NCBI GenBank assembly: GCA_964658305.1
Contig: OZ210885.1
Location: forward strand, 18,228,001 to 18,292,000
Direction: 5' to 3'
Length of the DNA stretch: 64,000 bases
Source: Leptogorgia sarmentosa
Lineage: Eukaryota
The position numbers and the translations under genes are program-made. A model generated the notes under the pieces. It saw only the letters and a program-made list of their open reading frames with translations, made no database searches and was not told where the DNA came from. This document shows positions 12,040 through 61,619 of the stretch, in pieces (position 1 is the first letter of the stretch; each line of letters opens with the position of its first letter).

Positions 12040-12065
12040 TCTTAGCCAAAAGGCCGAGAAGTGAT
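12040..12065 (-). pseudogene. U2: U2 snRNA nt 1-26 (5' part of the gene split by A1)
   Basis: Minus strand ATCACTTCTCGGCCTTTTGGCTAAGA (one mismatch to canonical ATCGCTTC). Confidence 0.93.
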
Positions 12066-12222
12066 GCCTCCTTCGCCATTCCTCGCCATCTTTTAAGCGA
12101 GAAAAGCAAGGTGAAAAAATGCGGTCCTCCTTCGCCGCCATTAGCAGCCGCGGCCGCGAAATCGCAAGCGAACCGAGTCGCAAACGTTATGGCACGTGGC
12201 GATGATGACGCATACAATCAAT
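12066..12222 (-). promoter_or_regulatory. U2 upstream (promoter) flank
   Basis: Near-identical to 62382-62545 and partly to 41556-41665. Contains TCACCTTGCTTTTCTCGC near -49, a PSE candidate only. Confidence 0.7.
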
Positions 12223-12276
12223 CTCGTCCTGAGAGGACCTCCTAGTTGATCAAGGTGCCTCTCGCGTCAGGTAAGT
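12223..12276 (-). pseudogene. U1: U1 snRNA nt 3 to about 56 (downstream of Tx1 family B; the rest is deleted)
   Basis: ACTTACCTGACGCGAGAGGCACCTTGATCAACTAGGAGGTCCTCTCAGG matches the intact U1 at 48903-49066. Confidence 0.93.
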
Positions 12277-12629
12277 TTATGTTGGATATAGGCAAATCCA
12301 CCCCCACTTGGGAGCGTGCAATGGATTTCCCTAAATCGAGGAGGGTGCTACCGGCACGCAAACGACTAGGGGGACGATCCCTACCTCCTCATTAAATGCA
12401 CCCCGAGAATATTTATTATTCTGATGCCTCGATTAGTGCATTTAATTCTATATAAAAAACAACACATACTAGGACGGAACATGGACCGATGCTCGCCTGA
12501 TACAGGCAGCAACAGGGATTTAAAAAGAGAAACGACCCTACCGAACCGATTCGGGCAGTACAACCAACTAAGGCGACCCCCCTTCATGGAACGGCAGAGG
12601 AAGAAAAAAGGATTAAAAAACCTAAAAGA

Positions 12630-14784
12630 CTAAAAGGAGAAGACCAGCTCCTCACCCTCGAAATGACCTACAATACCGCGAGCGAGCCAATCCCTCTCAA
12701 AAGATCGCACTTGAGCAGGGAGTTTGCACCGACGACCAAAGAAATGAATGACAAACTTTATTTTGGCGATGGCTTTCGCCTGGCAATCCGAGGCGATTGG
12801 CCGCTTACCACGGAAACGTGGAGCATCCACATGATGATTGGGGGCACGATGTGCCGTCGTTCGGACGAGAAGCCGAACAAGAGTTCCGTGACAGTAAATG
12901 GTGCGGCAGTAGGACATATCTGCCACAAATTGTAGTGTACCCATGCCACCAAAAGGCAGGCCATCTCATATTCAAAGAACAGATGTTCTAACGTTTCTTC
13001 ATCTGCTCGACAGAAACAGCGCGTATATCGATGTTGGGCATGTTAAAGCGAGTTCCCAAGCGAGAGCCCGTGTAGAGAATGCCGTGCGCTATTTGCCAGT
13101 TCAGGTCGATCACAAGCCGGTCAAATGGACATAGATGGAGCTGACTCCAAGTTTGGGGCCAGTGTAGAGGTCCATACTGTGGCGTGAATTTGGCTATACA
13201 ATGTGGCTGGCTATTTAAATTGTTTTGACTTATTTGGTACACATTTCTACTGGATATGTTATCCACCAGTAGTGGAGAGGCAGACGAGGCAGCAATGCAG
13301 AAGTCATTGCCTGTAAGACCACTGTCGAGAGATTGCCACACCCGAAAGATGATACAATAGAACTCGGGCAAGGCTCTCAAACGACGTTGGGAAAAAGAAG
13401 ATAAAAGGGCCTCACATGGCTCGCAACCAAGCGCCCGAGGCTTTCTCAAACTGAGAATACACCTCGAAGGTGGCCTCAATGGATTCATCCGTGGTAGGCG
13501 CAATCGTTGCATCGTCGGCATACCCAGAGCATTTAAACTGTTCCAGCGATTGAGGGAGAAAAACCCCAGTTATACCTGGGGCAAAGCAGATGTTAGCTGT
13601 TAACACCTCAATCGACAGAACGTACAATAGTGGAGAAAGTGGACAACCGTGCCGCACACCCCATGAAGGGCGAAAAAAGGAGGAGGTCCAGCCATTAATA
13701 ACAACAGCCGATTCGACGTCGGAGTTAAACAATTTTACCCATCGGCAGAAATCCAGACCAAAATTTATGGTGTCCAGAGTCCGTAAAAGAAAACCCCAAT
13801 CGACCCGATCAAATGCTTTTTCTTGATCCAAAGAGAGCAGAGCGAGGGGAATGTCCTCATGCTCCGCATACTCAATTGGATCACGGATCAGAAAGAGGTT
13901 CTCTGAGATAGTACGGCCTGGAACACCGCATGTCTGATCTGGCCCTACAACAGACCCGACAACGGCTAGGAGACGCCCCGAAATAGCGCGAGTAGCTATT
14001 TTATAGTCTGCATTGAGCAGACTAATCGGCCGCCAGTTCTTTGTCTCCAAGCGGTCGTTCTTTTTGTATAGTGCTATGATCAGACCTCGACGCTGAGAGG
14101 TGGAAAGCTGGCCGGCCTCGTAAGCAACGTTGAGGACGCGAACCAGATCAGTGCCAAGGCATGACCAAAACTTGAGGTAAAACTCCATGGGAAAGCCATC
14201 GGAACCTGGAGTCTTTCCTCTAGCCATACCAGATAAGGCAGTAAAACACTCCTCTAAAGAGAGAAGACCCTCACAACACGCACGTTCCTCCTTACTAAGG
14301 CGCGAGAAAGCTTTGACAGCATCTCGTCCTGAGCAGATGTATCACAGGGTGCCGCAGTAAAGAGTCCGGTGTAATACCGCCGCCAGACATCCAAAATCTC
14401 AAAAGGGTTGTGGCGCACGGAACCGGTGTCGGGGTCTCGAATGGAGTGCATCTCTTGCTTTGCATGATGCTTAGTGGCTAAGTTGAGAAAAAAGGAGGAG
14501 GAAGTTTCCCCCTCCTCAGCCCACTGACAGCGAGCACGAACTTGCGCCCCTCTCGCTTTCATGCAAAGCAATGCCTCGGAGCTCTTCCTGTACCTCGCAA
14601 AGCTTAGCGAATGCAGAGGTATCCCCTGCTTCAAAAAGACGTTGCAGCCTGTGCATTTGCTTGGTCAAGAAGGATTTATGCTCGCGCCGGTCCAGCTCCT
14701 TTGACCGACTAAAAGTCCATGTCACTTCACGAAGGTAGAATTTCCCTTGGTCCCACCAATCCAAAATAGAGGGAAAGGCCTCAG
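12630..14784 (-). pseudogene. Family B ORF2, RT and C-terminal part; frameshifted, with an internal deletion after the RT core
   Basis: KNWRPISLL, DQEKAFDRV, GYADD and HGILYT motifs across ORFs 12630..14830. Confidence 0.88.
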
Positions 14785-15106
14785 TAGGCCGTCGTCGGCT
14801 AAGCATCCAAAAGATGCAATTCCGTTGCACCCCTCTGCGAACTACATAATTTTTACATAATTTAATAGATTAGATCCTACTTTTTCAGAACCACTGCTCC
14901 CCAAGCGAAACAGGTGCACAAATTGAAATAAAGCACCTCCAAAGTTCGGCTAATTCCTATCTTAAAAAATACGATTCTCCATTGTTTTTGTTACAAACAT
15001 GCATGCGTTAAACGGGAAAGCAGCTACTATGCATGCTCAAATTGCAAACACTGATCCCAATACTGTATCTGGAGTTCATACTAGAGACATATATGTCATA
15101 CAATAA

Positions 15107-15307
15107 AGGCCGTGTTACACGATGCAATTTTTCTTGCAACATGCAACGCTATTCTTCTTGCGGAATTAGTGAAGACTGTTTGATTTGTAAAGAATTCATT
15201 GGAAAAATCTAATGAAAACTCATACTTGCCAATTTCACATCCCTCAACAGTCAATAGTAGAATTGCGATGCAAGTTGCAAGAAAAATTGCATCGTGTAAC
15301 AGTGCCT
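15107..15307. mobile_element. PIF/Harbinger-like MITE inside Academ
   Basis: About 40-bp TIR (AGGCCGTGTTACACGATGCAATTTTTCTTGCAAC / GTTGCAAGAAAAATTGCATCGTGTAACAGTGCCT) with TAA duplicated at 15104-15106 and 15308-15310. Confidence 0.8.
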
Positions 15308-15559
15308 TAAAACTAAATAAATTATATAAAAATTGATTACTTCTTTTGTTGCAGATGAAAAATAAATCTCATCGTTTTAAATTTGCTGATAAAAATTATG
15401 GTGCTTTTTGCGTTTAAATCAATGTTTGTGTTTTATATACCATATACGGTCTTGTATCAAACTGCAGTATGGAGGGTAGCATGCATTTGGGGAAGGTTGG
15501 ATTCTACAAACCGCAAAATCAGCATTATTCTTCAAACATGTGATCTGCCAAGACATCAT

Positions 15560-18500
15560 CATCAAACACCAGCTGCTCAAATTCATTCTCATTTTCATCA
15601 TCTTCGATTCCGTTTTCGTCAACATCGATGTTCAAACAGTCACGACAAGCACAGAGATTGGTGCACATTAATTGCGCCTTCAAACAAGCACAGCGCCTTG
15701 TAGAACATCCAGACTGACAGCCACTGACAGTTTACGTTCTCAAGGATTCCATCTGGAGCTGCTGGCATCGTCATCCACTTGATTAATACCTGCCCATTCT
15801 TGCTATCCCAACCACATTCATTGATCGGAGGAAGAGGTAGGGTTGCTTGCAATGCATTTTTCCAGATATATGCTTGGTATGATGAGCGACACGTGTGAAG
15901 CCATAATGCATCTTTTGTACATGGCATTGTGTTGTCGGAATACTGGCCAATACTGAAAATGTTAAAACGTGCATCGTTGACATCGTCAACAAACATATTT
16001 CTGGACATAACAAAATAATTCCTGGGTGACTGCACATGCTGATCCAAGTAACTTGAAGGTGGCAAAGAATTCAGGATACTCTCTAATGTGTTCAACGTCT
16101 TGGTTTTTCCTTTTCCATAAAACGCGCTAGTGCTGTCACAACCTTAAAGAGAAGAATGTTGGACTTAGTGGACCAATCTTCGTTTTTCTATACTGTAATA
16201 CTATTAACAACTAGATTACGAGCTCGATTGCTCGAGATTTCTATGGCATAGCTGACATTTGAGGGGAAAATCCGAACTACCTGTCACTTTATGAAAATTG
16301 AGAACAAGGAATCTAAGTGTTTCAGTGGAATCCCAGTTATTGTATTTGTACAAAAACATTGAAAAATGCGAACTGCATGGAAGGATTTTTTTCAAATGAG
16401 GCGCCAGAAAAGTAAATTAATATCAAACCGAAAAATTTTCTCACCTGTAAATGCATGGAAACCAATGAGAATCACATAGATCAGAGCCAAGTGCTAAATG
16501 TAGTTTACACACATCCAAAATTCTTCTCTGGTTTCCAACACCAGTATCAAAATACATGGCTGCAGGAATTGCTGGTCTATGTCCTAGCATTAAGACAAGT
16601 ACATCCGTGTCAGGGCTGCGAATGATTACATGGTCGTGAAACGTAGAAGCGTGTTGAGCATGAAGTAACATTCGTGTATCCGCTTCTTCGTGATCACTGT
16701 ACAGGTCGGAGCATTCTTCTACGAGAACGCCTTCGCTGGTTATGCTGAATTTATGGCACAGCTTACGTTTTTCAAATGATGGAAAAAGAATTCAACCAAA
16801 GCTTCTTTATTCTTTCTGCTTCAGTTCCACTGACAGGAACTTCTTAAACTGTCTGGGTGCTTTCTGTTGTGGGCCCAGAATCATTATTACGGTTGATCCT
16901 GCATCAGCGCGTTTACTCCTTTCTAGGTTCTTGATGCTCACATCGGGATAGGTGTCACAAACAAAATCTACTCTTGTTGACTTCGAACTTACTGCCCACG
17001 ACAAAATTCGACCAAGAATGCTTTCCACCAATGCTCCAAACGTTTTGGGAATGCGTTTCATTGCCTGGATCAATGCCATTCCATCTAGTATCAAAGCGTT
17101 ATTAAATAGTAGATCTTTGTGTTAAATCCATGTCTTTGCGTGATCTACACAAAAAATTTTTATAAGTAAATCCTAAATTATATCACTCGAGAATCAAGTA
17201 ATGGATTACCCGAGTCAAGTTGGTGGTTTATCACATAATTTGGTAATTATTATATTTGTCGAAATTTGTCTTAAGCAGCGATGTGTGAAGTAATCCAACC
17301 CTGATTTAGGTTTTATAAAACCCGATATCACTGAAGAAATTCATGAATTACCTGCTGTTTGTTGAACTGTCCGCCATTGTGAAACACTGTCTCGTAATAG
17401 CACCACGGTCTGCCTGTGCCAAGATCCATCTGTGCACTGCGTTTTTGTTCAATGTGAATCCAACTATGCCACCTCTAACTTTAGAATCTCGATTGTAAGT
17501 TTGCTCCATAACCTGATCACAAGCAGTGGACGAGAAACCATACGTTTTCTGACGCTGACATGTCCAGTTGTTGATAATGCTATCGGTTGCGCCTATGAAA
17601 TACAAGAAAGAATTACAAAGTACTAATTTTCTCCCATTTTCATGAAAGATTCGTAACATTGCATAACTCCGCAATTTGAAAGCTTGGATCACCTGGGTGT
17701 GATGTTTCAAGACATAACATTTCAAGCCAATAAACCGTTCCATATCTGGCATAGAGGATCCTGTCTGTTGCAAAGAACCATGGTAACATAGATCTCACTG
17801 CTGAGAGATGTAAATCCCAGTTGTTCTCTTGGGTTGCGCGCAAGAATGACAGAAGAGTTTGTACCATCTCAATGTAACTTAGCCACAATGCAAATGTTGG
17901 TTTTCTTTCGGCTTCCGTTTGCCGAAATGTAAAAACAGACGTTTTCAATTCTTCGAATTCTGTTGACATGACTTCGGCGACGTATTCTTCACCAGGGAAT
18001 TTGGTGGCTAGGTTTTCTCAAGCACAAAAAGGGTTATTATTATTCTTTCTTAAATTTCCCATATACTTTAGCTAATGCACATACGTAAATGTTAACTTTG
18101 CGTTTCACAAGTAGATTGCATAAATTTTAATCTCATTTGCAAATCACAACCTGAATCACCTTTTCATTCAAAATTGGGAATATCGGCCATCGTGAAATTC
18201 ATGCCTGGGTTAAATTCCTCAAGACACTTACCGCTCATAGTAATGGTTTCATCCCTTTTATCTTCTGAAAGAGAGTCAAGATATTGTTCAAACAACAATC
18301 TCATCAACGCTTCGTATACAACTTTATGTGACCTGACACTTCCGTTGTAGTGCTTTCCAGACATAACTCCGTTTATTGATCCTACTGCGACAATTTCAGC
18401 CTCAATAAGAATGTCCTATTAAAAGAAAAACCAAACTTAAGTTAGCTTTATTTTGAATTGCATCAAACTGAAAAATCGTTTGACTAAACAAAATTTGTAA

Positions 18501-20958
18501 ATCAGTTGATTGTGGTTGAGTTGGTAATGACCACATAGATGATGCAAGTATAAGTCATTTAATTTTGTCACGTTCTTCCATATTCCTTACGTTTCAAAAT
18601 GCATGGCCTTTATTGAAGAAGGGAGTATTTCTATAAAGCACTTCAACAAAATGATCTCCCAACATACCTTCAATCCAGCATCCTTGAAAAGTTTGGAAAT
18701 TGCCCCACAAAAAGACATATGTGTAGCCATATGGAAATCCCAGCCTGATGAAGTCTGATGATAAATCGATTCAGATATGTTTCTTCTTTCCATCTAATCT
18801 GCTGAACTTTTGAGTAAATCGCCTCATCAAAAACCAAACAAAAGTGTTGCACGTTAAGTTTATCAGCAATTTTCTCACTTTGACGTAATATCTCCTTCAC
18901 TGTTGAAAACTCAGTAGGACTTGCATCAATTATTGGGAGATAACCTATTCCAGACTGTGTGGGGATACTGCGTTCACTGACAAGTTTAGTATTGAACCCT
19001 GTCCAGTTGGGAAAATTAATTCTGCTACCAAGATATCTGCACAGACAGAATGCCAGGTCTTTCTTCTTGGCATCGATTTGGGGTTCAGTGTGATGATCCT
19101 CGCCAATTTCCTTGCCAATCATTGCTCCTTTCAGGTCGACAGTTTTTCTTCTCCCGATAAAATACGGATCAATATCGTAGGTTGGAGCTTCAAGCGATCT
19201 CTTTCGAGGAATACTCTCTCTCGTCTCAGAATCACTAGGTAAACGAGTATTCCTTTGGATTATGATACCTCCAGTTATATGGGTTGTCCCCTTGCCGGAC
19301 CTGGTTTCCTCTGAAAAGTCATCATTATCCCAGGCCAGTGTATTTGGCACATTACTTACGAAACCTGGAGGAATGGAAGTGTCTTCAGAGTTCAGATATA
19401 TTTAACTGTGCAAGTGCTGTTTCGTGAGCTAATACAAACGTGTGAGACATGCAATGCCCCAGCCCATTTAAGAGTGATATAACTGAGGAGGATCCAGTCA
19501 GTTTGCGAAGCGCCATAGCAAGTGCTGCGCTCTTGGGAGTACGATTTCTTTGTTTGGATGCCAAGCTAACCAAGTCTTGCGTTATTGACATCAGTTTGGC
19601 GTTTTCTTTGGAATTAACATTCACGAAGTTATCTACAACGAGGTCTGATGAGAATCCACAGATCCAAGCTAGTGTGTTGAAAAGCTCATAGGGAACAACT
19701 TTCCTGTTGACGTAATCCATTTCGTCCATATCGTCATCGCTGTTTTCAGCTTCGTGCAACAAATGTCCTTCCACCAAATCTGACGAATCTAAGTTCTCAA
19801 CGAAGACAATCTCACTGACGTTTCGTTTTTCGGGCATGCAGAACACAAGTTGTGGATAACTTTTTCTTAATCTCTGTTTGAGTTTGAATGCTCTGTATTT
19901 AGACGCGCCAACATTTTCAGTGTCCTTAGCAATGGCAACAAATTTTAGAAGTAAGTCTTTCATGCATCTTATTTCCTTTCTTTTGATAATTTCAGGGTCG
20001 ATAACGTCTTTACAGAAAACGCCATACGACTTTTCCTACACTGATTTACCTATTTTCGTCTCCTTTGTCTCTTTCGTGAGGAATCGTGTGTAATTGCAGT
20101 AACAAACTTTGTGGTAGCGGACCACCACTGCAACACAGTCCTTATCTCTAATTTGCAACAGAATTCGCTCATCATTCTTTGTTTCAGCAGCGGCGCGTAA
20201 TCGACCAGCATCAACTGTTCCTGCTAACACTAATGGTGTTCTGCTTCTCTTTTGTGTTTTCTATTATGGATAAAATGATTTTTTTTAAAAAACGGACACA
20301 AAAAAAACAAACGGAAAATATATAAGTTTACTTCGAGACATGACAATGCTTGGAACATAGAGAATTCATCTATTCAAACTATCAATCGGCGACTTACGCT
20401 CGATCGAAGCAACTCGAAAAACTACGTTGCGCCATTGAAAGAAGGGAAATTACTGTTAGAATACTTTATAGATCATACCTTGTCCCTTGAAAACCAAGAG
20501 GAATCTTTTCCACAAATAATGCAACACTTTTGAGGCAAATCCTTGCTGGATTGGGCACAGGAATTCCGAGTTACTTTTCTTCTTGGTTCCATGGGTGCCA
20601 TTAGTAGCTTTTCTTCGAGTGGTACTGCAATGTTTGTCATGTTTGTACATTTTTCCTCTTTTTTCTCTAGTCTTCGAATCTTTTCCTCATCGCAAAATTT
20701 CTTATAGCATTTCATGTGATGGTACCACTCTATATGGAAATTCTCATCATCTTTCACGAAGTATGAATTAACCCTGCTATCTTCAAATAGACTGTATGAA
20801 TTCTTCACTATATCAGCTTGCTCACAGTAAAGTTTTGCATATTTGGGCCTGCATTCAACAAATTTTTTTAGCCTTTGTCGCGAAATCTTGCAAAGCGGCT
20901 CCTTTACGCCATCAAAATGCATAAAACATGAGGATATTTTAATCTTATCATTAGCCAT
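15560..20958 (-). pseudogene. Intron-containing Academ gene (transposase, XPG/FEN1-like nuclease, Cys-rich C-terminus), decayed
   Basis: AWDNDDFSEET..G.GTTH and FDEAIY (transposase); ILDGMA, HEEADTRM, SPDTDV, GCDSTSAFYGKGK (XPG-like). A GT-AG intron at about 16144-16444 joins FTG/CDS. Confidence 0.8.
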
Positions 20959-21376
20959 TTGATTATAACTTTTAATGTTTAATTTAAAACAAGCTACATT
21001 GTTGTAACTACGGCGATACTTTTAAAAGAACAAGAAGAAATAACTTTTGAAAACAATGTACTATATTTTGATTCATTGTCCAGTTTCCTGTATTGGGATC
21101 AGTGTTTGCAATTTGAGCATGCATAATAGTTGCTTTCCCGTTTAACGCATGCGTGTTTGTAACAAAAACAATGGAGAATCGTATTTTTTAAGATAGGAAT
21201 TAACCGAACTTTGGAGGTGCTTTATTTCAATTTGTGCACCTGTTTCGCTTGGAGAGCAGTGGATTCTGATAAAGTAGGATCTAATCTATTAAATTATGTA
21301 AAAATTATGTAGTTCCCAGAGGGGTGCAACAGAATTACTTTTTTAAGCACTTTTTCGATGCTCAACCGACGGCCTA

Positions 21377-22220
21377 CAGGTGTATAATGGGCCTGCCAGA
21401 AGGACCTAAATGAAGTGACAAGGGCGCAATAGGTTTCGTCGTCCAGGAGGGAAGTATTAAACTTCCACACTCCAGGACCACTAACGATACGATCACCAAA
21501 TTCGAACTTGACCAGCAAGTACTGATGATTGGATAAAAAGGAGGGATGGTATTCACATTCCCTAATAGACTGTTCCAGACAAGTCGGGGCCCAGACCATA
21601 TCGATGCGTGATGCGAAGGTTCCGGACCCATGGGTCCAGGAATAAGCCTTCTGCGTGGGATGTACTGTACGCCACACCGGATATGTCTGGGTATGAGATA
21701 GTAGGGCCTGCAAAGCCGGGCCACTCTCCTGGGCGCGCGAAGAGGCAGCACCAGTGTAAGAAGCACGCCGAAGCCTATCCCGATCATCGTCTAGAACAGA
21801 ATTAAAATCACCACAAACAAATGTGGGCCTGGTGAGATCGATTAAACCAGGAATTGCAGAGAAAAAAGCGTTACGAGCCGGATTCTTATTTGGGGCATAT
21901 AAGGAGACGAAACTTAGCTGATCCTCCCCAAAATCAACCAAGACTTGGACAAACCGCCCATCATCGTCTCGAATCACCTGTTTAACCTTGTGCCATTTTT
22001 AATTAGAATAGCCGTACCGCAACGCTTAGTTGAAACTGACGACGAGACAACTCGAAAGCCAGAATTAGCGAACCACTTCCTAATGGATTTGTGCGAAGGA
22101 GCATGCGTTTCTTGCAAACATGCAACATCCACCTTCATACATTTTAACCAATCCACCAGGGCGGTTCGTTTAATACGGTTGTTAAGACCATTAATATTGA
22201 TGGACAACAGACTCGCCATC
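21377..22220 (-). pseudogene. Family B ORF2 APE endonuclease
   Basis: MASLLSININGL, CLQETH, CGDFN, SRID; one frameshift. Confidence 0.88.
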
Positions 22221-23849
22221 AGAATCTGATGTCCCAGATGTGGGTAGCTCACCAAGAAGGAGCTCCTCGAGTTGACCAGCACGAAGCTGATCACTAAACG
22301 ACGTGCATGTCGAACATGCACCAACCTCACTGACATCGTCGCGGAGACTAGACAGTGAGGCTTCATGAATGGATGCCAGTGCCTCGAAAAGATCAAGGGA
22401 TAACTCAGACTGCTGAGACGAGACATCCACTGCAGGAGGATCCTGGGAAGCAGCATTGTCATCATCCACAGCAGCCTGAGGAAGCACGGGAGCATCATCC
22501 ATACGCTCCGGGGATCCGGCTGGCTCAGGAGAGGCAAGAGCAGGCGCAGAGTCATGAGCGATGATCGGGTCAACTACAGTATCACCACTCAAACACTTGT
22601 CCAAGTCAGCCTCAGGAGTGGCAGTTTTGGTAGGAGGGCTCGGGAACCCTGGCCACACGCTAACGTTGGATGATCTCGGAGGCGCAGGAGCGGACGTGCA
22701 TACTCTCTTGCCAACTTTACCAGCTTTAGCCTCACTACTGGAGAAAGCGACAGCGCAAAATTAAAGGATTTGCGCTTCAGATGTTCAGCTGTCGGAGGCG
22801 TCAAAGTAGTCTGCTCAGACTGACCTGTGGGCTTAGGAGTCTTCTTCCTCAACTTCTCCTGAAGGTCTCTAGGGCGAGAAGAGGAGGCCGATGTAGAAGG
22901 GCCGGACGAGGCCGGCAGGAAGGTGCTCTCCTTAGCCGAAACTAATAGGGGATAACTCCCTTAGCCTGAGGAGCATTAGCCTTAGCTCGCTAGTCTTCTT
23001 CATCTTCGTTAACTTCTCCCGAAGGTCACCCTTGCAAGAAGAAGAAGAGGATGAATTATCCTTGAGCAAACCTTTTGTCGGCTTAGATGTACTGGTAGGT
23101 TTGGGCACTGCCGACTTACTAGCCTTAACTTCTCGCAAAGGTCTCCAGTGCAAGAGGCAGAGGACGATTTAGAAAGGCCGGACGAAGCCGGCGAGTTATT
23201 ACTATCCTCAGCCCCTGTAGGTTTTGATTTACCAGTATTATTTTTTGTATTTTTAGTATGACTACCCTGACTATGCTGTTTCGATGACTTTGGGCAGTCC
23301 TTTGCAGTGTGCCCCACCTCCTGGCACGCAAAGCTAGTAGGCGGCTGCCCGCGGTAACGAAATGACAGCTGAAATCCGACAACGCGAATTTCAGCTGGGA
23401 TAGCCTTAGATATTACAATTTGCACCATACGTGTGCCAGATTTAACCAACGGGAACCCCTTGATGGTTAAGTGCTTCACTGATATAACCCGACCGTATGG
23501 CGCCAAGGCGTCATAAAGATGTTGGTCCGGCATCTGAGGAGGTGCACGATCCACAAACACAGATTTGACTTCCTCATAGGCCGGTAAGGGTGTGATGGTA
23601 AGGCCCCGAAAGTTAAGGCCGTTGATGTCAAACTGACTTCGAACGGCGGGAGAAGAAAAACATACAAAATTTCATGCCAGGCAAGGCCTGAACACAAGTC
23701 ACACTCTTCTCCCCAATGGCCTTAACTAGTTCTGCCCGCAACTGACGGACTTTGGATTTGCCAACCAGTTTCTTTGGCAAGAGAAACACAGACGTGGTCT
23801 GGTTCCACTTTGCAAAGTCCTCCCGACTAAATACAGTTGGGACAGACAT
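22191..23849 (-). pseudogene. Family B ORF1, frameshifted
   Basis: YRGQPPTSFACQEVGHTAKDC (degenerate knuckle) followed by a low-complexity Ser/Pro/Lys tail. Confidence 0.75.
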
Positions 23850-24498
23850 ACTATGATAAATTACTATAAATTACTATTAACTAAAGCAAGTTGATCCAAA
23901 CACACTGCCAGAACAGGTAAAGCCCGAGTGACAAGAAAATGAGCCTTAAAAAGTACTACAAATTAAGACCCACACACACGAAGGATCAAAAAACTAAGTG
24001 GAAAGAAAGGTCCTTTAAAAGAAAAAGGGCCAGGGAACGGATATGTTGGTCCACCGACCTCAATCCGCAACACCGAAAGCAAAAAAAGAACCTAAAAGAC
24101 CACCGACCTTTGAGTTGTCCCCAAACAGACTCCTCGACAGGTCACACACAAGAAGAGCTATTACCCACTACCTAATAAAAACAATAAAAAACGCTGTAAT
24201 GGGCGGCCCTATGCTGTGTTGCGTGCTAACCGCGCAACAAACAGCAGGAAAGACTGCCAATCGAGTTCCGAAGAACAAGAAAAGCAGTCCAAAAGAAAAA
24301 GAATGGACATACTGCTACCTTGACACCTATCCAAGTAGGCCGGCCAGACAGCGGGAAGACAGAACAAAGAAGAAAGGCGTGTCTGCAAAAAGAACTGCAG
24401 CTAGTTGTAAACCTTGCGAGCAGAGTTACAGGTCCGTGTTCCTGAGCATAGATCCTCTACTGCAAAGGTGAAGAACCTGACACGACAAAGACCGTCGT

Positions 24499-24511
24499 GT
24501 CAGGTAAGTAT
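24499..24511 (-). pseudogene. U1: U1 snRNA nt 1-13 (5' remnant)
   Basis: ATACTTACCTGAC preceded by the same upstream flank as the intact U1. Confidence 0.9.
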
Positions 24512-24950
24512 GACTTCATGGCGCATACGATTACCTTTTATACGCTGCAATCGCGAGGAATGCTTGTGGAACGAATGCATGGGGATGAGTTTGTCTTTCG
24601 ATGGATGGATCGATCGATCTCTCAGACTGCACCGTGTTTGCACGTTCCGAGAATTCTCGACCATATTCAATACGAGTTTACAAAAAAATCAAAGAATGTA
24701 AATCTCATGAACAGCGATACTGCTTTGTTGGCCAACGAGCTACCAAGACAATTATAACATGATTGTGTTAGGCTGCTTACCATGCAAGTATAATTCGTGG
24801 TCGGTCATCCACACTGAATGCTTCATATATACGTATCTCCTGCGAAATGCCTGATCGCGGCGATGATCTATCTGTAAAGGCAAGAATAATTTGTCAGAAT
24901 TTTGAACTGATAGTGAGTGAGAAATCTTCCCCCAATAATGAAATTGGGGG
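24512..24950 (-). promoter_or_regulatory. U2-U1 intergenic spacer including the U1 promoter region
   Basis: Highly similar to 49067-49522. Confidence 0.8.
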
Positions 24951-25102
24951 AAGTGGGCCGTACTCGGAGGTAGTGCAATACCGAGGCAACCCATGGCCAG
25001 GGCGAAGCAAGCTTCAATCCCATGGCCGAGGTCCAAAAATCAGTTTAATATACGAGTTAGGACATTGCCTAACATATCAGATATTAAGCTGATAAGAACA
25101 GA
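24951..25102 (-). pseudogene. U2: U2 snRNA nt 39 to about 190
   Basis: TCTGTTCTTATCAGCTTAATATCTG..., Sm site GATTTTTGG, stem-loop IV CTCGGTATTGCACTACCTCCGAG. Confidence 0.95.
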
Positions 25103-25730
25103 AATTTTTTATTAACAATAAAGAAGAATTTTACATTGGTATAAGATATGTGGTAGTAAGTAACAAGATTATGAGAGAATATAGGAATATATGGCTATTT
25201 AACTGGTTAGTTAAGGAATATATCAGTGTCTTTTATGCACTGTTACAATCAGTGTCTTTTATGCACTGTTACAGGAAGTATTTAGTTAAATTTAAGGATA
25301 TTTACTGCTCTTGAAAAGGGAAGAGCAATGATCGAGAAAAAAGACGTTGTTCAATTTTCACAGAAATGTTCAAGTTCGTAACTAAATTCTTGATATTGTT
25401 CTTCTGATTTAAAAATGTCATTAGGTACTTTAGATACATCATTGAAAGCTAAAATGTTTTTCATGATATTTAAAATATTGTCTCTACTATTATCTAATAA
25501 GTAGGCATGATGATCTGCAAACTCATGAAAAGGATCCATATGAACTTTGTTTCATTCTAGAACATGTACATCGATTAGGTAGGATGGAACTTGAGAGCCA
25601 CAAAGTCTGCACAGACCAGGTAAGCTCATATATTCGGCTTCTATGTCTTTGTGCAGGTATCCATTGATGTCAAAGAACAAGGTTTTGGGTATTTTAGCGA
25701 ATGAATTTTCCTTAGGTTCAAAGTCATCGA
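25103..25730 (-). mobile_element. AT-rich insert at U2 nt 38/39 with a Utopia-like 3' end but unrecognised upstream content
   Basis: Junction AAAAAATT|TCTGTTC is identical to 49674/49675, and the terminal ~55 nt resemble 49675-49730. Confidence 0.55.
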
Positions 25731-41825: not shown

Positions 41826-42045
41826 TGTTACTGCCAATGAGCAAGTAAACTACAATCTTACTCTCTTTAATTCTTCTTAAGAACATACATGTACTTTAGC
41901 AAGGCTCTTAGCCAACGTTCAAAGATTGTTGACGATTACACTCTTTCTTAAACTGGCTTGACGAATACTAGCAAATTAATATAAGTCTCCATCCTTTTAT
42001 ATTGTCGTAAAGTCATTTACATATAATTAGCAATAGTATGCTACA
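41826..42045 (-). repeat. BEL 3' LTR (220 bp)
   Basis: Near-identical to 48274-48510 apart from a ~17-bp deletion and a few substitutions. Confidence 0.92.
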
Positions 42046-42088
42046 CACCGGCCTCTTAAGTGTGCGAGGCAATCAAACACTTATAATC

Positions 42089-45000
42089 TTATTCATCATA
42101 ACTGTCCGCTTCTAACAATAACACTAACTTATCTATCGGTCTCTCCAATATGTTAGACTTTGTTCTTACTTGAACACGTCGTACCAAACCTTTCTTATCA
42201 GCCATAACCTTCTCGACTTTTCCCATTAACCACATGTTTCTTGAGGTAGAGGAATCGGCTAGTAATACTATGTCACCAACTGCTACGTTGCGTTTGGACT
42301 GGAGCCATTTCTGTCTTCTCTGCAACATGGGGATGTATTCCCGAATCCATCTTTTCCAAAATATATCCACGAGATATTGTACTTGTCTCCATCGTCTTTT
42401 GGAATACGTATCGGCTTTGTTGAATACTCCAGGAGGGAAGGATTGGTTGGATTGGGTAAGCAACAGATGATTCGGTGTTAGCGCATGAAGGTCTTTCGGA
42501 TCTTCGCTGACTTTTGTAATGGGTCGACCATTCAGCAGCGCTTCGACTTCACACATCAGGGTATGTAACCCTTCATCATCAACTATTTGCTCCTTTAGCA
42601 ATACTCTCAGAATACCACGAATGGTTCTGATGCATCTTTCCCATATACCTCCATGGTGGGATCCATAAGGAGGGTTAAATGTCCACTTGATGTGCTTCTG
42701 TAAAAGATGGCCATGAATTTTATCCTGGTTCCACTTGCTGATAGCTTCTCTTAATTCCTTTTCTCCACTCGTGAAGTTTGTTCCATTATCAGATCTTATT
42801 TCCTTGACTTGTCCTCATCTAGCTAGAAATCTTCTTAAAGCCAAAATGAAAGAATCTGTGTCGAGGCTGTGCGAAATTTCGATGTGGACGGCTCGTATTG
42901 CCAGACACGTAAATATTACCCCATATCTCTTTACTAAGCTTCTGCCACGACGAACTGTGAACGGACCAAAGTAGTCTACTCCAACGTAGGTAAATGGAGG
43001 ATGGTCAGGGGTCAAACGATCTTTGGGTAGGTCTGCCATTTTTTGCTCTAAGACTGGTGCTTTCCATTTTCTGCAGCTGATACAACATGAAAGTAATCAT
43101 CTTACAGCTGAGTTAGCCTGAATGATCCAATATCGTCTGCGTAGAAGTGCTAACATATATTCTCTGCCAAGATGACCAGAGATAACGTGATAATATTGAA
43201 TGATAATGTTCGTTATGTGATTTCCTTTCGGCAGGATAATCGGATGCTTCGAACATTCAGGAATTGCAGCATTTCGTAGTCTTCCACCCACGACTAGAAG
43301 ACCATCACTAAGAATCGGGTCCAGTTTGGATAATGGGCTTGATTTCTTTATACATGCTTGTTTTGATCTTTGTTCTTGTAGTGCTGCTATTTCTTCTGGA
43401 AAATACTTTCGTTGGACACATCTCAGAATGGCTTTCTCTGCTGTTTTCAACTCGTCAACGCTTAACTTTTCGCTATTCGATTTCGAAGATTCTCTACTTT
43501 CAGATATCTGTTCTTTACGTTTCCGAATGGCTTCGATCAGCTTTCTGCGATAACGTAGGATCCACGCTACCAATTTCACTGCATGATACCAAGAAGAAAT
43601 TCCATGTACAAGGTTAAGAAGAAAGTCCTCTTTCGATGAAGCATTTTGGACATGGGTAATGCACAATAGTGTATTACGTTTCAATTCGGGGTCTTCAGAA
43701 GGTATTTCGGCTGACTGAAAACTCTCGGGACGTTCAGGCCAATATGATCGAGGTTTCCACAGAAAATCAGGACCGTCTATCCAAGTGTTGGACTTCAGGA
43801 ATTTATCAGCAGTCAGACCGCGTGACGCTAAATCAGCAGGATTCGTTATACCATTCACGAACCTCCACTGTGTTGGATCTGATCTATCTCTAATTATGGC
43901 AATGCGATTAGCAACGAAGGTTTGAAATCTTCAATTCTCATTTTCTACATAACGTATTACTGCTGTACTGTCCGTCCAAAAGGTGGAGCTTTCGAGCGGA
44001 ATATCCATTTCGTTCAACAACATAGAATCAACACGAACAGACACTGTCGCAGCTGAAAGTTCGAGGCGAGGAATAGAGATCGTTTTCAGGGGTGCCACAC
44101 GAGCCATTCTGAGTACGAGCGAACAATGGACTCTTTTATCATGGCTTTCTTGGCGAAGATACGACACCGACCCGTACCCAGATTCGGATGCATCAGAAAA
44201 GTGGTGCAGCTCACTTGACTTGACTTCGAAATCTGGAGGCTTGTAACAGCGCGGGATTGATAATTGAGACAATTTAGGCAGCTCTTCTAACCACCTCAAC
44301 CACGCTAATCGATACTCTTCTGGTATTTGATCATCCCATCCCAGCTTTAATCTGCATAACTCTTGCAAGATGATTTTTGCAGGCAAGATAACTGGCGATA
44401 ACAAACCGAGCGGATCGTAGATGGAACTCACTGTTGATAGGATTCCTCGTCTGGTTGGGGGTCTTACTTTAATGATGATCTTAAAACGAAATTTGTCCGA
44501 TTCTGCAGACCAAGAGTTCCCAGAGCTCTTTCTATTGGTAGTTTATCTTGATCCAAATCAAGATCTTAACTGCATTGGCGCGTTCTTTCTTTGGTATACT
44601 TGTCAACAATTCACGGCTGTTGCTTGTCCACTTTGTTAAACGAAAGCCTCCTTTCATCAACAGATCGCGTAGATTCTGGACGAGTGGAGTCGTATCACCG
44701 ATAGTAGGAGTGGACTTGAGGCAATCGTCTACGTAGAAGTTTCTCTTAACTATATTGGTAACTTCACTATCGAACTTTTCTTCATTATCTTCGGCCGTTT
44801 TCAAAAGGGCGAAATTCGAGCAGTTAGGTGAGGATGCAGCTCCGAAGAGGTGCACGAGCATTCGGTATTCTTCCGGTTCTTTCGTGAGGTCACTGTCAGT
44901 CCACCATAGAAAGCGAAGAAAATCAGCGTCGGCATGTGGTATTCTGACTTGGTAGAACATAGCTTCTATGTCTGCCATAAATGCAATATATTCTTCACGA

Positions 45001-48000
45001 AACCTTATCAAGACTCCAAGCAGGTGGTTGCTTAAGTTAGGACCGGTCAGTAGTTGATCATTTAGGGATGTGCCTTTATATTTGCACGAACAATCGAACA
45101 CCACCCTTACTTTTCCTGGCTTCTGGGGGTGGTAGACACCATGGTGGGGTAGGTACCAGACTTTCCCATCACTTTTACCCAAAAGTTCTGGCGGGACTTT
45201 TCGTGCGTACGATTTGTCCAGGAGATTATCGATAAACACCTTGTAGTCTTCGAAAAGCTGCGGGTTCTTCAGGAACTTTTGTTTCAACCAGTGGGCACGC
45301 TGTTGTACCTGTTCTTTGTTGTTTGGCATTTGACAATTACTGTTCTTGAAAGGCAACGCGATAACATAATGATCATTCTTCAGAGTAGTTGTACTTCGGA
45401 CAGAGGCCATGAACTGTGCTTCTTTTCGGGACATTTCGGTTTTGACATCGGAGATTGATTCGTTGAAGTCTCTATTGATTGCGTCCATCACAACTTGATT
45501 TAATGTAACATCTGCATTCACGAAGAAACTTCCGATTCCCTGAGCTTTATTCTGACGAAATAAAGGCCCATTAATTGCCCATCCTAGCACTGTTTTTGTC
45601 GCATACGGACCACTGTTCTCGCTATTTATAACTTCTATAGGATTCAACGCTTTCGGAACGTCACTTGCGATCAGAATACCGACTTGGGCGTCGACAATTG
45701 GTAATTGTACGCCTTGAAGATGCGGCCACTTGTCCACGTCTTCTTGAGTTGGAATGTCTTTATTTGACACTGGAATTTCGGCTGCAGTATCGATAAATGG
45801 CAAGTCAATCGAACAATTTTCATCCAAATCCAAGATTTCCAGGTGCTGGATAACGGAGCTATTGATGATGCTATTCTTCGCTTCCATTGTCGTTAGCGAT
45901 ATCGTCGTTTCGATACCCTTAACACCCAACTGTTCAGCTAGATTCTCCGTACAAAACGACGAGTCACTTCCGTTGTCCAAGAACGCATAGGTCACAACTG
46001 TCATATTCGTTTCTTTACTTCGTACTTTGACGGGAATTATAGCTCTGGCAATCTTAGATTTTCCAGCCCCTGTTCGGTCAGGGATTTCTCTGTCGGGTTC
46101 TCCACTTGTAAAGGCAATACGGGCTTCACCGACACGAGTACGATCACGTGATGTTAACGGGCTATCGCCAGCTGCTTGGAATTGATCTTCATCCGTAGTT
46201 GTCGACTTGTCTACCTTGTTGTTCTTCGGGTTACTTGAGATCGAGTGCAAAACGGTTGGATGCTTCTTGAAACATTTTGCAACTTTGCAGGAGAGTCGTC
46301 CGGTGCAAGATTTTGCGAGATGACCTTCACGGAGGCAGCTAAAACATAACTGAGCACTCTTCAGAAAGTCAATGCGATTTTTATAAGGTTTACTTTTCAA
46401 GACTTCACAATTTTCGATAGTATGACCGACTTCTTCACGACCGTTCTTACTGCAATACTGACAGGGTTTATTAGATTCCTTTACATTAATACCAAAACTC
46501 GATCCTCCGGATTTTGGCTTCGCAGGCTTAACTCGATTAGCTAACGGTTTCACAGAGGAAATATTACCAAACACAGGATGGGTAGCAATTCTTGCTTCCT
46601 TTTCCACGAAATTTGCAAGGTCTGTAAACGTTACCATTCTTTGGTTGATTTCAGTAATGTCATCTACTGTTCTTCGCCATCTGCATCTCATATTAAAGGG
46701 CAATATTTGTACAATCTGATGAATATTTTCAGGATTGTCGAATTTAGTCATGAAGTCATTACCATCCATAACATTCTTGCAACATACAAGAAGGATCGAG
46801 AATCTGTGTAAGTTCGCATTATCTTCTGATTTCAATTCAGGCCACTTTAACACTTTGTCCATATAGGCGGCTGCAATCTTGTACTCATTTCCATAATTTC
46901 TTTTCAACAGCGCTCTAGCTTCAGGATAACCACGTACCGGAGGCATGTGATGACACGATTTTACCAACTCTTTCGCTTGGCCAGAAGTAAATTGTTCTAA
47001 ATAATACAAACGTTCGGATAAAGTTATTATACTCCGTAGGATTTCCGTTCGGAACTTTTGCTTCGATAATATTCTCAAACGCGCGTATAAAGTTATTATA
47101 CGCCGTAGGATTTCCATCAAAAACTGGAACACGTTGTTGTGGTAAGGTGCTCTTTCGCTGCTGTACTGAAAAGCCTTTCATGATTTCATTTTGCTGAATA
47201 TTTAAATCATTCTGTTGTTCTTGAAGTCGTAGCATTGTTTCTAATGTCGTATTATGCAATTCTGTTGGTTCTCGTTCCGGTTGATCACGTCTTTTGAAAC
47301 TTGTATCTTGTTGATCAACTATCTTGGAGACGGCCGCTCTTTTGTCTGTTTTGCTAATAAACGATGGTTGAGGTAATTTTCTACCAATCGAACGAGGTAT
47401 TTTTACTTCATGTTCTGGTGGGCTTTGGTGAACAGCTACATTTTCAAATGGGTTTTTATTGGACGGTTGAGGTGCTTGTAAGGCTGCCAGCGCCTTTTCT
47501 TTTGCCGCAGACTTAGCGATTTCCATCTCCAACTTTATGCGAGTTTCCTCTTGCTCTAATCGTAATTTCTCTTGCTCTAAACGTTGCTGGACTTCTAGAG
47601 ACTTTGCCTGTACCATAAGCTCAGCCAATTTTACAGCTTCATTAGCTCTTAGCTCGGATGTCACAGACGAGTGAGTAGACTGTTTTGATGAAACTTTCGA
47701 AGCAACTTGACTTGCGGAGTCACTAGGTGATATCTCAGGAAGGGACATCAAACGTAGCTCTTTATCTTTAATCCACTCAATTATGTTATCAATAAATTCT
47801 CGGTATGATTTCTCTTGATCTTCGTATCGCCTTTCGGCTTGCATCATACGTTCCGCATCGGGTTCATTAGATTGACACGCTCGATGCGCATCATAATACT
47901 TGTTAAATAATCGTTTCAAACTTTCGTATTTCTCCATAACCAGCTTAACATCGCCATCTTCAGCTAGTAGAGTGCTTATCTCGTTCTTTTTAGCTGTAAC

Positions 48001-48250
48001 TGCCGATAAAACACCGCTTCGACTGTTCCTAAGGCGCTTTAATTGTTCTTCCGAGCTCAATTGTTTGTTGACATTGTTTTCCAAACCCGACACACGAATT
48101 TTCGAATTTTGCTGTATTGTAACATCGCTTTGGTCGCTACTTCCATCAGAGGACGATAAAATTGTGGATTGTCGAACATCTTCATCAATATGAAGCGTGC
48201 TGTTGAGTTCTGCGTCTGTAGTGAGTATATCTTGCTCAAAATATGCCATT
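42089..48250 (-). pseudogene. BEL gag-pol (Zn knuckles, protease, RT, RNase H, integrase) with stops and frameshifts
   Basis: CFSCLREGH, FLDNGS, WYLPHH, FYVDD, FSDAS, DYFGPF, LTPNHLL motifs. Confidence 0.92.
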
Positions 48251-48273
48251 GTAATCGTGAATCTTTGAACTAA

Positions 48274-48510
48274 TGTTACTGCCAATGAGCAAGTAAACTA
48301 CAATCTTACTCTCTTTAATTCTTCTTAAGAACATACATATACTTTTAACTATAATTGCTGCCAATAAGGCTCTTAGCCAACGTTCAAAGATTGTTGACGA
48401 TCACACTCTTTCTTAAACTGGCTTGACGAATACTAGCAAATTAATATAAGTCTCCGTCCTTTTATATTGTCGTAAAGTCATTTACATATAATTAGCAATA
48501 GTATGCTACA
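48274..48510 (-). repeat. BEL 5' LTR (237 bp)
   Basis: Direct repeat of 41826-42045. Confidence 0.92.
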
Positions 48511-48902: not shown

Positions 48903-49066
48903 AGGCGACGAGCGCGAACGCAGGTCCCCACTACCAGAAATTATACGCTCAAGTTACCCACATTAGGGGTAATCGCAGGAGTCAACCCAGTCGAAGTGCA
49001 ATGAAAGGGCCTCATCCTGAGAGGACCTCCTAGTTGATCAAGGTGCCTCTCGCGTCAGGTAAGTAT
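48903..49066 (-). ncRNA. U1: U1 snRNA, full length and uninterrupted
   Basis: ATACTTACCTG 5' end; SL1 GAGAGG..GATCA..CCTCTC; SL2 loop ATTGCAC; Sm site AATTTCTGG; SL4 with TTCG loop; about 164 nt. Confidence 0.96.
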
Positions 49067-49674: not shown

Positions 49675-50322
49675 AATTTTTTATTGACAATAAAAAAACC
49701 CATTTACATTGATTGACTTATGTGGTATGAGTTACAGTTAACATTACATTTATAGTGATAACTTGAATTGTTCATATTTATATGACTAATTATAGTACGT
49801 GGATTGTTCATAGTTCATATTACTGATTGTTACTGAGAGATCAATTAAAGATCAACATTAATGATATGTTTGTTCATTTGAGGACCATACTAATGGCTTT
49901 AAGAAAGGACGAAGCAATAAAGAGGTTTTTATTGATTACATCATTATTTGATTTAATTCTAAAAAGTTATTGTGGAACACCTGTGAGGTGTTGTACATAA
50001 ATGTTACGTGATCCTCTGATTGCATCAGCGCAGCAAAGTTTCCTGAGAAGAGTTCTATAGGTCTTGTTGATTTGTAGATCGTCAAGGACATCTTCGTTAC
50101 CATTGTACCAGGCACCGAGTGAGCCAACTACGAATCCAAATACTTTGGCATCCATGTTTTGTTGTTGGAAGTGATCGATTAGATATTGATATTTGTTCAC
50201 TTTACGTTGGGCAGCCATTTCAAGGGATGAGTCATCATTTTCGAAGGGGCACATGACGTCAATGATTGTTACTTTGTTACCATTTGTGATGACGATGTCG
50301 GGGCGGTTTATACCAGGAGCAC
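49675..50322 (-). mobile_element. 5'-truncated Utopia-type (NeSL clade) retrotransposon at U2 nt 38/39, no TSD
   Basis: RPDIV...IIDVMCPFEN...KVNKY...GSLGAW is a restriction-like PD-(D/E)xK endonuclease (49967-50322). Flanked by U2 GTGTAGTA and TCTGTTC. Confidence 0.9.
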
Positions 50323-50339
50323 TACTACACTTGATCTTA
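50323..50339 (-). pseudogene. U2: U2 snRNA nt 22-38, between the Tx1 and Utopia insertions
   Basis: TAAGATCAAGTGTAGTA. Confidence 0.92.
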
Positions 50340-52249
50340 TTTTGAGTTGAACGATGACGGGCTTGTCGACTCCGACGGTGCAATGGAGCCTGGACCCAAA
50401 CAAATCGCCGCACCCAGGGGGGTCACTACAGGTGACGCGGATCGACAGGGGTCGTGAGCCCCTCCCCCGTGCCATGATGCAACCGTGAGTGGCCTGAACG
50501 ATCCGGTGCTAACCACCTTCACGTCCAGGGATCCCTAACCTAATGATGGTGAAATGGTCAGACGATGATGTTAAGCTAAACAATTACAACATGAGCAGCA
50601 ACCCCTAGATCAACACCTGTGCAACCCGCTCGGAACAAGTCCAAGCGAACCACAGGGCAAAAAATTGGAACAAACAAACAACCCAATCCGATACAGGCAG
50701 TACAAGCAATAAAGGCGACCGCTAGATCTTCATGGGAGGACAATACGAACCAACATTAAACATAAAAACAGATGTGCTGTCCAGTCCAAGACAACGAGAC
50801 AAAAACAAAAAGCGTCCAGAAGGCGACGACAGTACAACCACTGAAGGCGACCATCGTGCCCCTAGACCACTACATAGAACATAGGGAACGAAAAGAGGAA
50901 AAGAGGGAGGAAAGAAAGAAAAAAGGGATCAGGTGATAAAATCCCTGGTAAAGCGGATCCAGTCTTGCTCTGTTAATGAGCCAATAACGCCGTCTGCCAG
51001 CCACTCGTGGACAAACCGGTCCCGAGGGCAATGCCGCTTGTGCATACGCACGAGAAAGCGGAAGGTGGTCTTAGCTTTCTTCAGGGTGGTAGGTATATCT
51101 GGGGCAACGTGATCAAACCGTTGGGCGTTGCGGCTCAACCAAATGGTGTGTCTTAGTACACCCAGCAAAGCAGAAAATACAGCGGGCACATGGCTAGTGG
51201 GAGGGAACCCAAATAAAATAGTACTCACTGGCAGTGAGGGCGCATTCGGCCGAAATTTACAAGAAATGGAGTGGAACCAGTCGATAATAGTGACTGAAAT
51301 TGGGCAAGAGGTAAACAAATGTAGCAGATTCTCTTGCTCTCCACAAGAGCACAGGGGATCCACCCTCATGCCAAATCGAACCAACCGATCGGCCGTGGGT
51401 AGGATGCCGTGGTATGACAGCCAAGCAGTGTCTTGCACTGACCTCACAAAGCGCCACAGGTGTAATGAGGCCCACGCAGCAGGCCATGCGACGTCGATAC
51501 CCTAGTCTCTAAACTTTGCCACGGAGCGATGCTCAACGGTGGAGGAACGCCGGAGCAGGGAATACCCTGTACGAGCAGTCAGCTCGGGGAGAGGAAGCAA
51601 TTGCCCAGAAGGACGAGGGATGACCCATTCGCCCTGCTCGATCCTACCCTTCAAGAGGACCCATGAGGAAAGTACACCCCTATAACAAGGAGGTAGTTTT
51701 TTTATTAAGTAGACTGGGATGGGATCCCTAGCCAAAACATCAGCAACCGACTGATTGAAAACCACCTCAATGTGGTGCGAAAAAAAAACAAGACCATGGG
51801 TGTAAGCGGTTAACAAAAAAGTGACGTAGCCAAACGGCACGAATGGACAAAATTTTAGTTGAGACGTCCACAATATTTAAACCACTGTCTCCGATGGGCT
51901 GGACCACGGATGTGCGTGCCATCCATTTGCGCTTTTTCCCCCAAACAAAAGGAAAAATTATTTTATTTATTTTAGCAATCGTCATTTTTGGCAGGTCGAA
52001 AATTGTCGCTTGGTACCAGAAGAGCGACAGCCCCAAGGTATTTACAGCTGATGCTGTTTCCATAGTGACAGTTGCTGGTCTAACTTTGCAACCAAGGAGT
52101 CCCAGTCAGCAGATTCTATGTTTGCAACCCGACACCCCAACACAGTTATGGCGTCGCTAGACCAATTGAGCTGAACAGGAAGGTCAACCCTATTCTTCCA
52201 GGTGCCAAAAAGAAGACCATGACTTTTAGTAATGTTTAATTTTGCGCCA

Positions 52250-61200: not shown

Positions 61201-61619
61201 ATTCTTTTAAAATTAGCCTAGAACTGTGAGAAACAAGCTTTGGTGCGGCGATGTCGTCCCGAAGCATTGCACGCCATTTTGACAAACGTTGAATTGCCTA
61301 TGGTCAGTTTAGTGCGAAATATCTCAAAATCTGCCGGGGGATCTCGGGGATCTCTCCAGCAGATTTTAAGTTTAGGCATTTGTCTTGACTTTTTTGCAAA
61401 AATTACGAAAATCGAACCGTGGGAACTCCAGATTTTTTAATTTGAAATTTGTAAACAGAAACAGACTTCGGCCATTACGCCGAGACGACATGGCCAACTT
61501 TAATGACCAAAATAATATTGAAAAATAGCATTTACCTGAGTAATTCTTGCATAGATCGCTAGCTCATTCATAATACTTCGGTCACGCTTCGATTTTATGT
61601 GCAAAATTAGTATATATAT
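52250..61619. repeat. 4685-bp tandem duplication (52250-56934 and 56935-61619)
   Basis: All ORFs recur at an offset of 4685. The only difference noticed is YADN versus YADD (52326/57011). Confidence 0.95.

Follow-up and report, generated by a model that had tools for sequence, protein, structure and literature searches.

A dead Tx1-type retrotransposon between nucleotides 2 and 3 of a U1 snRNA gene in Leptogorgia sarmentosa, and its probable targeting of U1 rather than splice donors

A stretch of 64,000 nucleotides of Leptogorgia sarmentosa (GenBank assembly GCA_964658305.1, contig OZ210885.1, positions 18,228,001 to 18,292,000 of the forward strand), called the window below, is a tandem array of U1 and U2 small nuclear RNA (snRNA) genes crowded with retroelements. 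One of these, named family B here, is a long interspersed nuclear element (LINE) of the Tx1 type which lies between nucleotides (nt) 2 and 3 of a U1 gene. The copy is dead. Its family is probably transcribed from the U1 promoter and probably has an endonuclease that nicks U1 at a site centred on TCAT/AC (the slash marks the junction), and not splice donors.

Family B was flanked by an exact duplication of 11 bp, GTCAGGTAAGT, at 12266-12276 and 24499-24509. This 11-mer equals U1 nt 3-13 and includes the splice donor CAG/GTAAGT; its chance expectation is 0.016 per strand, and the third and last copy in the window was in the intact U1 gene, at 49054. Read along the minus strand, the U1 upstream flank was followed by U1 nt 1-13, family B (24498-12277) and U1 nt 3-52. 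The flank (25122-24512) was 90.5% identical to that of the intact U1 gene, with 97 of the proximal 100 nt the same. An earlier note on this DNA, made from the letters alone, had described both the donor-containing duplication and the U1 flank with nt 1-13 (24511-24499) retained ahead of the element, and both descriptions were borne out. The duplication is not quite certain in its far limit, since the first 4 nt of the element match U1 nt 14-17 at three positions. Behind the element the U1 gene stops after nt 52; its remainder is deleted, and the end adjoins sequence from upstream of a U2 gene.

The 3' junction of family B was surveyed in contigs of public sequencing runs (X1 to X7, of which X2, X3 and X4 come from one sample) and in relatives; such evidence consists of collapsed contigs and not of copy counts. 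In X3, 13 contigs lay on 12255-12400 (8 listed), none of them matched the stretch only in part, and there was no loose end among the matches listed. Depth in this run was 1969 across the junction against 1886 just inside the element, and a more diverged contig (21 differences, 24 gaps) likewise joined U1 at the family B site. The single contig of X4 spanned the junction with 8 differences. X5 gave two contigs over the family B end, one extending 31 nt into U1 (10 differences) and the other stopping within the duplication, while one contig of X6 began in the family B 3' end, crossed the duplication and continued into a family B 5' end, a head-to-tail pair. All visible 3' junctions, from three samples and two studies, entered U1 at nt 3 or a tandem copy of family B. 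The share of flanks at one target exceeded the 20% criterion for target-specific families given in PMC4494074. U1 specificity, left unproven by the earlier note with its single copy, is therefore supported by every visible junction contig and by relatives sharing the site.

Relatives were retrieved with an alignment of 16 B-clade proteins as query, and the best 80 of 328 confirmed metagenome loci were used; 48 further loci came from prokaryote bins and were evidently host DNA. No relative was found in viral contigs, and the only B-clade locus among those retrieved (L081) ended short of its junctions. In junction counts, identical or overlapping contigs were counted once, and members with early-ending or rearranged contigs were excluded. 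A fast reverse transcriptase (RT) tree of 140 rows contained a strict clade of 29 rows and a sister clade of 23 rows, whose elements are about 42% identical to the second open reading frame (ORF2) of family B. In the strict clade 10 of the 11 distinct visible 3' junctions read an A-run and then U1 nt 3, and the remaining one (L031) was in a 210-bp repeat. The eight visible 3' junctions of the sister clade comprised two at U1 nt 3, one at a U5 start, one upstream of a tRNA-Gln gene and four elsewhere. The non-U1 junctions of L006, L012, L025, L031 and L044 had no small RNA match in Rfam. Tandem arrays with the U1 head between copies were present in L028, L082/L084, L088 and L046; insertion on the promoter side and insertion on the body side could not be told apart by the order of ages in such arrays.

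Several other observations touch these relatives. Target switching was seen within the small sister clade, with L025 (3666-5611) near a U4/U7-like array, L035 (5247) at the U5 start and L090 (9608) 5 bp upstream of tRNA-Gln. Elements like short interspersed nuclear elements, non-autonomous and 1.0-1.3 kb long, were found at U1 nt 3 as riders of U1-targeting Tx1 elements (L082, 7271-8550; L088, 1905-2946), and carried a U1 head, the same AUUGCAC tail and, near nt 57-60, a stretch complementary to the 5' arm of U1.

A single chance insertion into U1, multiplied passively with the U1-U2 array, would fit the one B copy of the window and the amplification of arrays, of which a near-identical 4.7-kb duplication in the window is an example. 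That explanation is largely refuted and hardly credible, because the same base was used by diverged B variants, by head-to-tail copies separated by the duplication and by the relatives of about 42% identity in other hosts.

The earlier note had further proposed that, if recognition were limited to the duplicated sequence, consensus intron donors could be secondary targets, and this was not supported. Recognition confined to the donor-like 9-11 bp would fit the exact presence of CAG/GTAAGT in the duplication and the tandem copies, in which replacement of the sequence beyond about nt 13 on one side is tolerated; rare single insertions would moreover be hard to detect in contigs. However, the donor complement stood at the start of none of the seven non-U1 junctions of relatives (0/7), no B contig left U1, and X3 and X4 showed no loose end at the junction of family B. 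The duplication reads as a donor because the U1 5' end (nt 3-11) complements the donor consensus by function. Two off-target sites could be read, the empty site of L006, whose U1 head lies inside an 8-bp duplication, and the repeat unit of L031; both keep TCAT/AC as in U1 and have lost the other donor-matching positions. TCAT/AC corresponds to U1 -2 to +4, or on the donor strand to intron +5 to +10, and only its last 2 nt fall within the donor consensus; promoter-side U1 junctions read CAT/AC in all but L004. By arithmetic, the 11-mer would occur in 1/16 of perfect donors and the 15-mer from -2 to +13 in 1/4,096. Donors may thus be hit occasionally, yet there is no sign of donors as a target class, and it is quite improbable that consensus intron donors are genuine secondary targets.

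Targeting could instead be set by position, through a tether to snRNA-type promoters or to nascent small nuclear ribonucleoproteins (snRNPs) by way of the U1A-type hairpin described below, with a cut at the start site and a minor role for sequence. The sister-clade elements at the U5 gene start and just upstream of the tRNA-Gln gene agree with this. Nevertheless, family B and the strict clade sit at U1 starts with no visible junction at a U2 start, though U2 genes share the same arrays, and the off-target sites share local sequence with U1, so that this alternative is unlikely. Recognition of the TCAT/AC-centred U1 sequence is preferred here.

A number of points weigh against this preference. 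The TCAT/AC core is known from only two off-target sites, the five other non-U1 sites being without usable empty-site sequence, and six of the eight sister-clade junctions lie outside U1. Coverage by the runs was uneven: X2 gave four contigs with none at the junction, X7 gave no contig and X1 did not cover 12278-12500, gaps which prove nothing, and one run, the best, may be the source of the window itself. Single off-target copies of family B may also have been missed, because contigs drop rare variants. A careful tree of 36 rows placed B, both clades and the U2-targeting families of the window in a 28-row group (99/99), separate from the poly(A)-tailed elements at U2 nt 39, the published site of Keno, a U2 snRNA-specific member of the Tx1 clade (PMC4640811, PMC4494074), at which some relatives sit. 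Within this group B was not sister to the other U1 nt-3 elements but part of an unresolved four-way split including the U2-targeting families, and its endonuclease loop differed from that of the strict clade; the relatives may therefore have reached the U1 nt-3 site separately.

The family B copy and the U1 gene behind it are both dead, judging from the mutations they carry (Table 1). A CCHC-bearing ORF1 lay upstream of an ORF2 with an N-terminal apurinic/apyrimidinic (AP)-type endonuclease and RT, which are Tx1 features; a database match to 'Transposon TX1 uncharacterized 149 kDa protein' had 55% identity, and the trees contained no named Tx1 reference. Matches to named proteins, at 50-55% identity, pointed to an animal host, probably a cnidarian. 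Compared with the intact ORF2 protein P0002 (1,181 aa), the family B ORF2 was in six pieces of 73-89% identity with frameshifts and four stops, and lacked about 170 residues (about 733-901 in P0002 numbering). Intact relatives of 1,181 aa were 4 of the 15 listed members of the P0002 cluster of 53. A nested DNA transposon of 6,592 bp made up 6.6 of the 12.2 kb between the duplications and split ORF2 between residues 280 and 282. None of the four scanned ORFs of the nested element had a Pfam match; it carried intron-like interruptions and an internal 53-bp inverted repeat (15106-15308), and from its ends and duplication it is presumably Academ-like.

Table 1. Features of the family B locus and of the intact U1 gene in the window
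Feature	Position	Strand	Evidence
U1 upstream (promoter) flank ahead of family B	24512..25122	-	90.5% identity to intact U1 flank
U1 nt 1-13, including the 5' duplication copy 24499-24509	24499..24511	-	match to U1
Predicted 13-bp hairpin, U1 nt 7-13 and first element bases against element nt 12-24	24475..24505	-	-21.8 kcal/mol
Family B Tx1-type non-LTR (long terminal repeat) retrotransposon, full length, dead	12277..24498	-	5,627 bp without the nested element
ORF1 remnant, CCHC zinc knuckle, frameshifted, approximate limits	22200..23849	-	PF00098, translation
ORF2 5' part, AP-type endonuclease, one frameshift	21381..22219	-	PF03372, PF14529; 83-89% to intact P0002
Nested DNA transposon, TAG...CTA ends, inverted repeats of about 255 bp, 3-bp CTG duplication	14785..21376	.	
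ORF2 3' part, reverse transcriptase and C-terminus; stops, frameshifts, internal deletion	12642..14782	-	PF00078 E 3e-24
3'-terminal hairpin, C-G pair before AUUGCAC (12322-12316), no AATAAA, A-tail of 2 nt	12285..12337	-	
3' duplication copy (U1 nt 3-13)	12266..12276	-	exact repeat
U1 nt 3-52, truncated gene	12227..12276	-	100% over 50 nt to intact U1
Deletion joint, U2 upstream region and U2 nt 1-26, then U2-inserted Tx1 of another family	12040..12226	-	
Intact U1 gene of the same U1-U2 array (empty target)	48903..49066	-	Rfam RF00003, 141.5 bits

That transcripts could begin with the U1 5' end, as the earlier note suggested, received indirect support from the heads of relatives. L006 lies at a non-U1 site, yet starts with the U1 head together with a few flanking U1 bases. 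The U1-like head reaches nt 12-19 and varies with element family, and an insertion of one base after nt 12 is common to L001, L020 and L037. Since these lengths are family-specific and the inserted base is shared, the head beyond about nt 12 seems to be inherited with the element, which agrees with a true duplication of 10-11 bp. Co-transcription with its target is described for R2 (PMC4494074).

A hairpin of 13 bp was predicted at the head of family B (z -6.0; 0 of 200 shuffles were as good), and its arm complementary to U1 was also present in the X6 tandem copy. In a co-transcript it would mask part of the donor-pairing arm of U1. A general masking hairpin over this arm was rejected, since the duplex beat shuffles (p<0.05) in only 4 of 18 heads, all of them donor-like sites. 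Nor was an intron in the 5' untranslated region supported: 12 of 18 heads had GGTRAG at nt 70-79, but a clear acceptor by the ORF1 start was seen in about 2 of 17, and family B had no such donor. The donor at fixed distance (nt 70-79 after the U1 start) was observed in L001, L002, L003, L004, L013, L020, L028, L037, L084, L086 and L089. No clear acceptor accompanies this donor, which could help a transcript from an snRNA promoter to elongate by recruiting U1 snRNP.

At the other end, family B terminates in a hairpin with a motif of the U1A type. The protein U1A recognises AUUGCAC together with the C-G pair that closes the loop, whether in a hairpin or in an internal loop; it binds U1 stem-loop II and also an internal loop in its own mRNA, the polyadenylation of which it regulates there (PMC2203988). 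Among 12 aligned ends, 92.9% of cells were paired, changes on both sides were found in 6 of 13 pairs, and the C-G pair before the motif was present in 12 of 12. An exact AUUGCAC stood within the last 80 nt in 16 of 20 in-clade ends, and in 20 of 20 when one mismatch was allowed, against none of 17 Keno-side ends; the background was 0.6%. AATAAA was present in 0 of 19 in-clade against 14 of 17 Keno-side ends. These counts mirror shared descent and perhaps one event, with a loop that is conserved despite stem changes. In the 36-row tree the group counts for the Keno label are unreliable, as one row so labelled (win_28104) has a U2 nt-39 junction which more likely belongs to a separate element. 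Rfam U1A_PIE had no match in the window among hits up to E 1.

From these features the 3' hairpin of family B is predicted to dock host U1A. Three considerations limit this. The covariation score was reached by 0 of 500 shuffles, but this control ignores relatedness. AUUGCAC is unpaired in the consensus fold, while the hairpin of family B folded alone partly pairs the motif. The hairpin also occurs in relatives outside U1, so the target is not set by it. For the tail step there is, besides, a competitor whose chance falls only somewhat short of even: the hairpin would be an anciently captured snRNA stem-loop, now a handle for the ORF1 or ORF2 protein of the element itself. Stringent LINEs recognise 3' stem-loops, the hairpin is found whatever the target, and the simple loops, such as those holding AUUGCAC at the three U2-side Tx1 ends of the window, are letter-identical to the loops of U1 stem-loop II or U2 stem-loop IV. 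On the other side, the conserved letters are exactly those read by U1A (the 7-nt motif and the C-G pair), in two loop geometries and with changing stems.

With the TCAT/AC-centred U1 site as target, insertion of family B may be pictured as follows. The endonuclease would nick the antisense strand at the T/A step opposite U1 nt 2/3; endonucleases of the L1 type cut 5'-TTTT/AA, and that of Tx1L is sequence-specific (PMC1950540). The freed 3' end, reading GTCAGGTAAGT, would prime reverse transcription, and a second cut near nt 13 would give the 11-bp duplication. The promoter and nt 1-13 would remain in front and yield a U1-headed RNA, and a usable site would be rebuilt ahead of the element, which would lead to tandem arrays. 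In the least certain step, the RNA, which has no poly(A) signal, would be bound at its tail hairpin by host U1A or U2B'' and thereby diverted from the polyadenylation route of mRNA, and the read-through U1 sequence would then pair with the nicked primer strand.

Taken further, the Tx1 lineage might mimic an snRNA at both ends, with the U1 promoter and head at one and, at the other, a hairpin docking U1A or U2B'' in place of a poly(A) signal. The hairpin would block polyadenylation or bring the particle to snRNA gene clusters, and the U1 tail would pair with the target. This idea is tentative and rather doubtful as it stands. If true, it would make this lineage a LINE that enlists a spliceosomal protein as cofactor for its retrotransposition and is directed at the sequence of U1 that varies least.

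Family B works like Keno but is not Keno, since it differs in gene, site, 3' end and branch. Both are LINEs with AP-type endonuclease and RT that enter a spliceosomal snRNA gene at one base and in the sense direction; the target of family B is U1 nt 3 and that of Keno U2 nt 39. The Keno-site elements of this set have AATAAA and poly(A), are without AUUGCAC and fall outside the clade of B. Xenopus Tx1L is likewise of the Tx1 type, with an endonuclease that nicks a specific sequence, whereas it targets the transposon Tx1D and has no snRNA promoter (PMC1950540). Dada-U1 shares the specific insertion into U1 genes, but is a DDE DNA transposon with a 6-bp duplication, an internal GCGAAT site and no reverse transcription (PMC3706591); family B, an RT element with an 11-bp duplication, has neither the DDE transposase nor the 6-7 bp duplication of Dada-U1. 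Utopia is also an snRNA-gene-specific non-LTR element with occasional tandem copies, while its endonuclease is restriction-like and its site U2 nt 39 (PMC4640811), in contrast to the AP-type endonuclease of family B. The U1 stem-loop II and the polyadenylation inhibition element (PIE) of U1A mRNA resemble the tail of family B in having AUUGCAC after a C-G pair near an RNA 3' end (PMC2203988), while the tail has a single predicted site and is in a retrotransposon.

As excerpted, a 2015 paper gave Keno and Utopia (U2), Dada-U1 and Dada-U6 as the only snRNA targeters, and regarded low-copy snRNA genes as a poor niche (PMC4640811). A figure legend of PMC4494074 names U2, U5, 5S and satellites as Tx1 targets, and further targets may be listed elsewhere in that paper; the excerpt of PMC8869645 had no further snRNA targets. 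Literature searches turned up neither a U1-targeting non-LTR element nor a report of a U1A site within a retrotransposon; Repbase, which lay outside these searches, may hold such families.

Other insertions in U1 were observed at separate positions. Poly(A)-type elements of the Keno side in other hosts had a 3' junction at about nt 37-41 and a 5' junction after nt 25 (L096, 684 and 7281; L092, 72 and 6012; L097, 10008), a separate site used by another lineage. In the host of family B, a poly(A)-tailed contig of X1 joined U1 at nt 23, and contigs of X3 left U1 after nt 30 (window 12249-12256); a second U1-targeting element with a duplication of about 8 bp is possible in this host.

The window contained further elements. 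A Tx1 family, named family A, was inserted in U2 at about nt 22-26 (5' side U2 nt 1-26, 3' side from nt 22) and not at nt 39 of Keno and Utopia; its coordinates were 12040-12065 with 1100-1125 and 62362-62381 with 50323-50345, and it ended in a simple AUUGCAC hairpin. A head-to-tail duplication of 4,685 bp (52250-61620, 99.98% identical) within a family A copy either arose very recently or is an artefact of assembly. A 3' fragment (49680-50320) with a PD..D-type motif in its translation, presumably restriction-like as in Utopia and R2, was nested where a family A copy ends and lay at U2 nt 39, and a tail similar to it (25104-25130) stood ahead of the U2 at 25104. The U1-U2 spacer held an LTR retrotransposon (41826-48510) with DUF1759 and LTRs of about 240 bp that were 91% identical, which is presumably BEL/Pao-like.

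The splice-donor idea contributes little to the meaning of these results. The U1 5' end is the common target of several Tx1 families, many of which have an intact ORF2 and which stack in arrays, while nt 37-41 and perhaps nt 23 of U1 are occupied by other lineages. Because targets among close relatives are strict, loose or switched (U1, U5, tRNA and other), target change by an AP-type endonuclease becomes testable, and the split between poly(A) signal and U1A-type hairpin offers a direct test of how a LINE with an snRNA promoter forms its 3' end.

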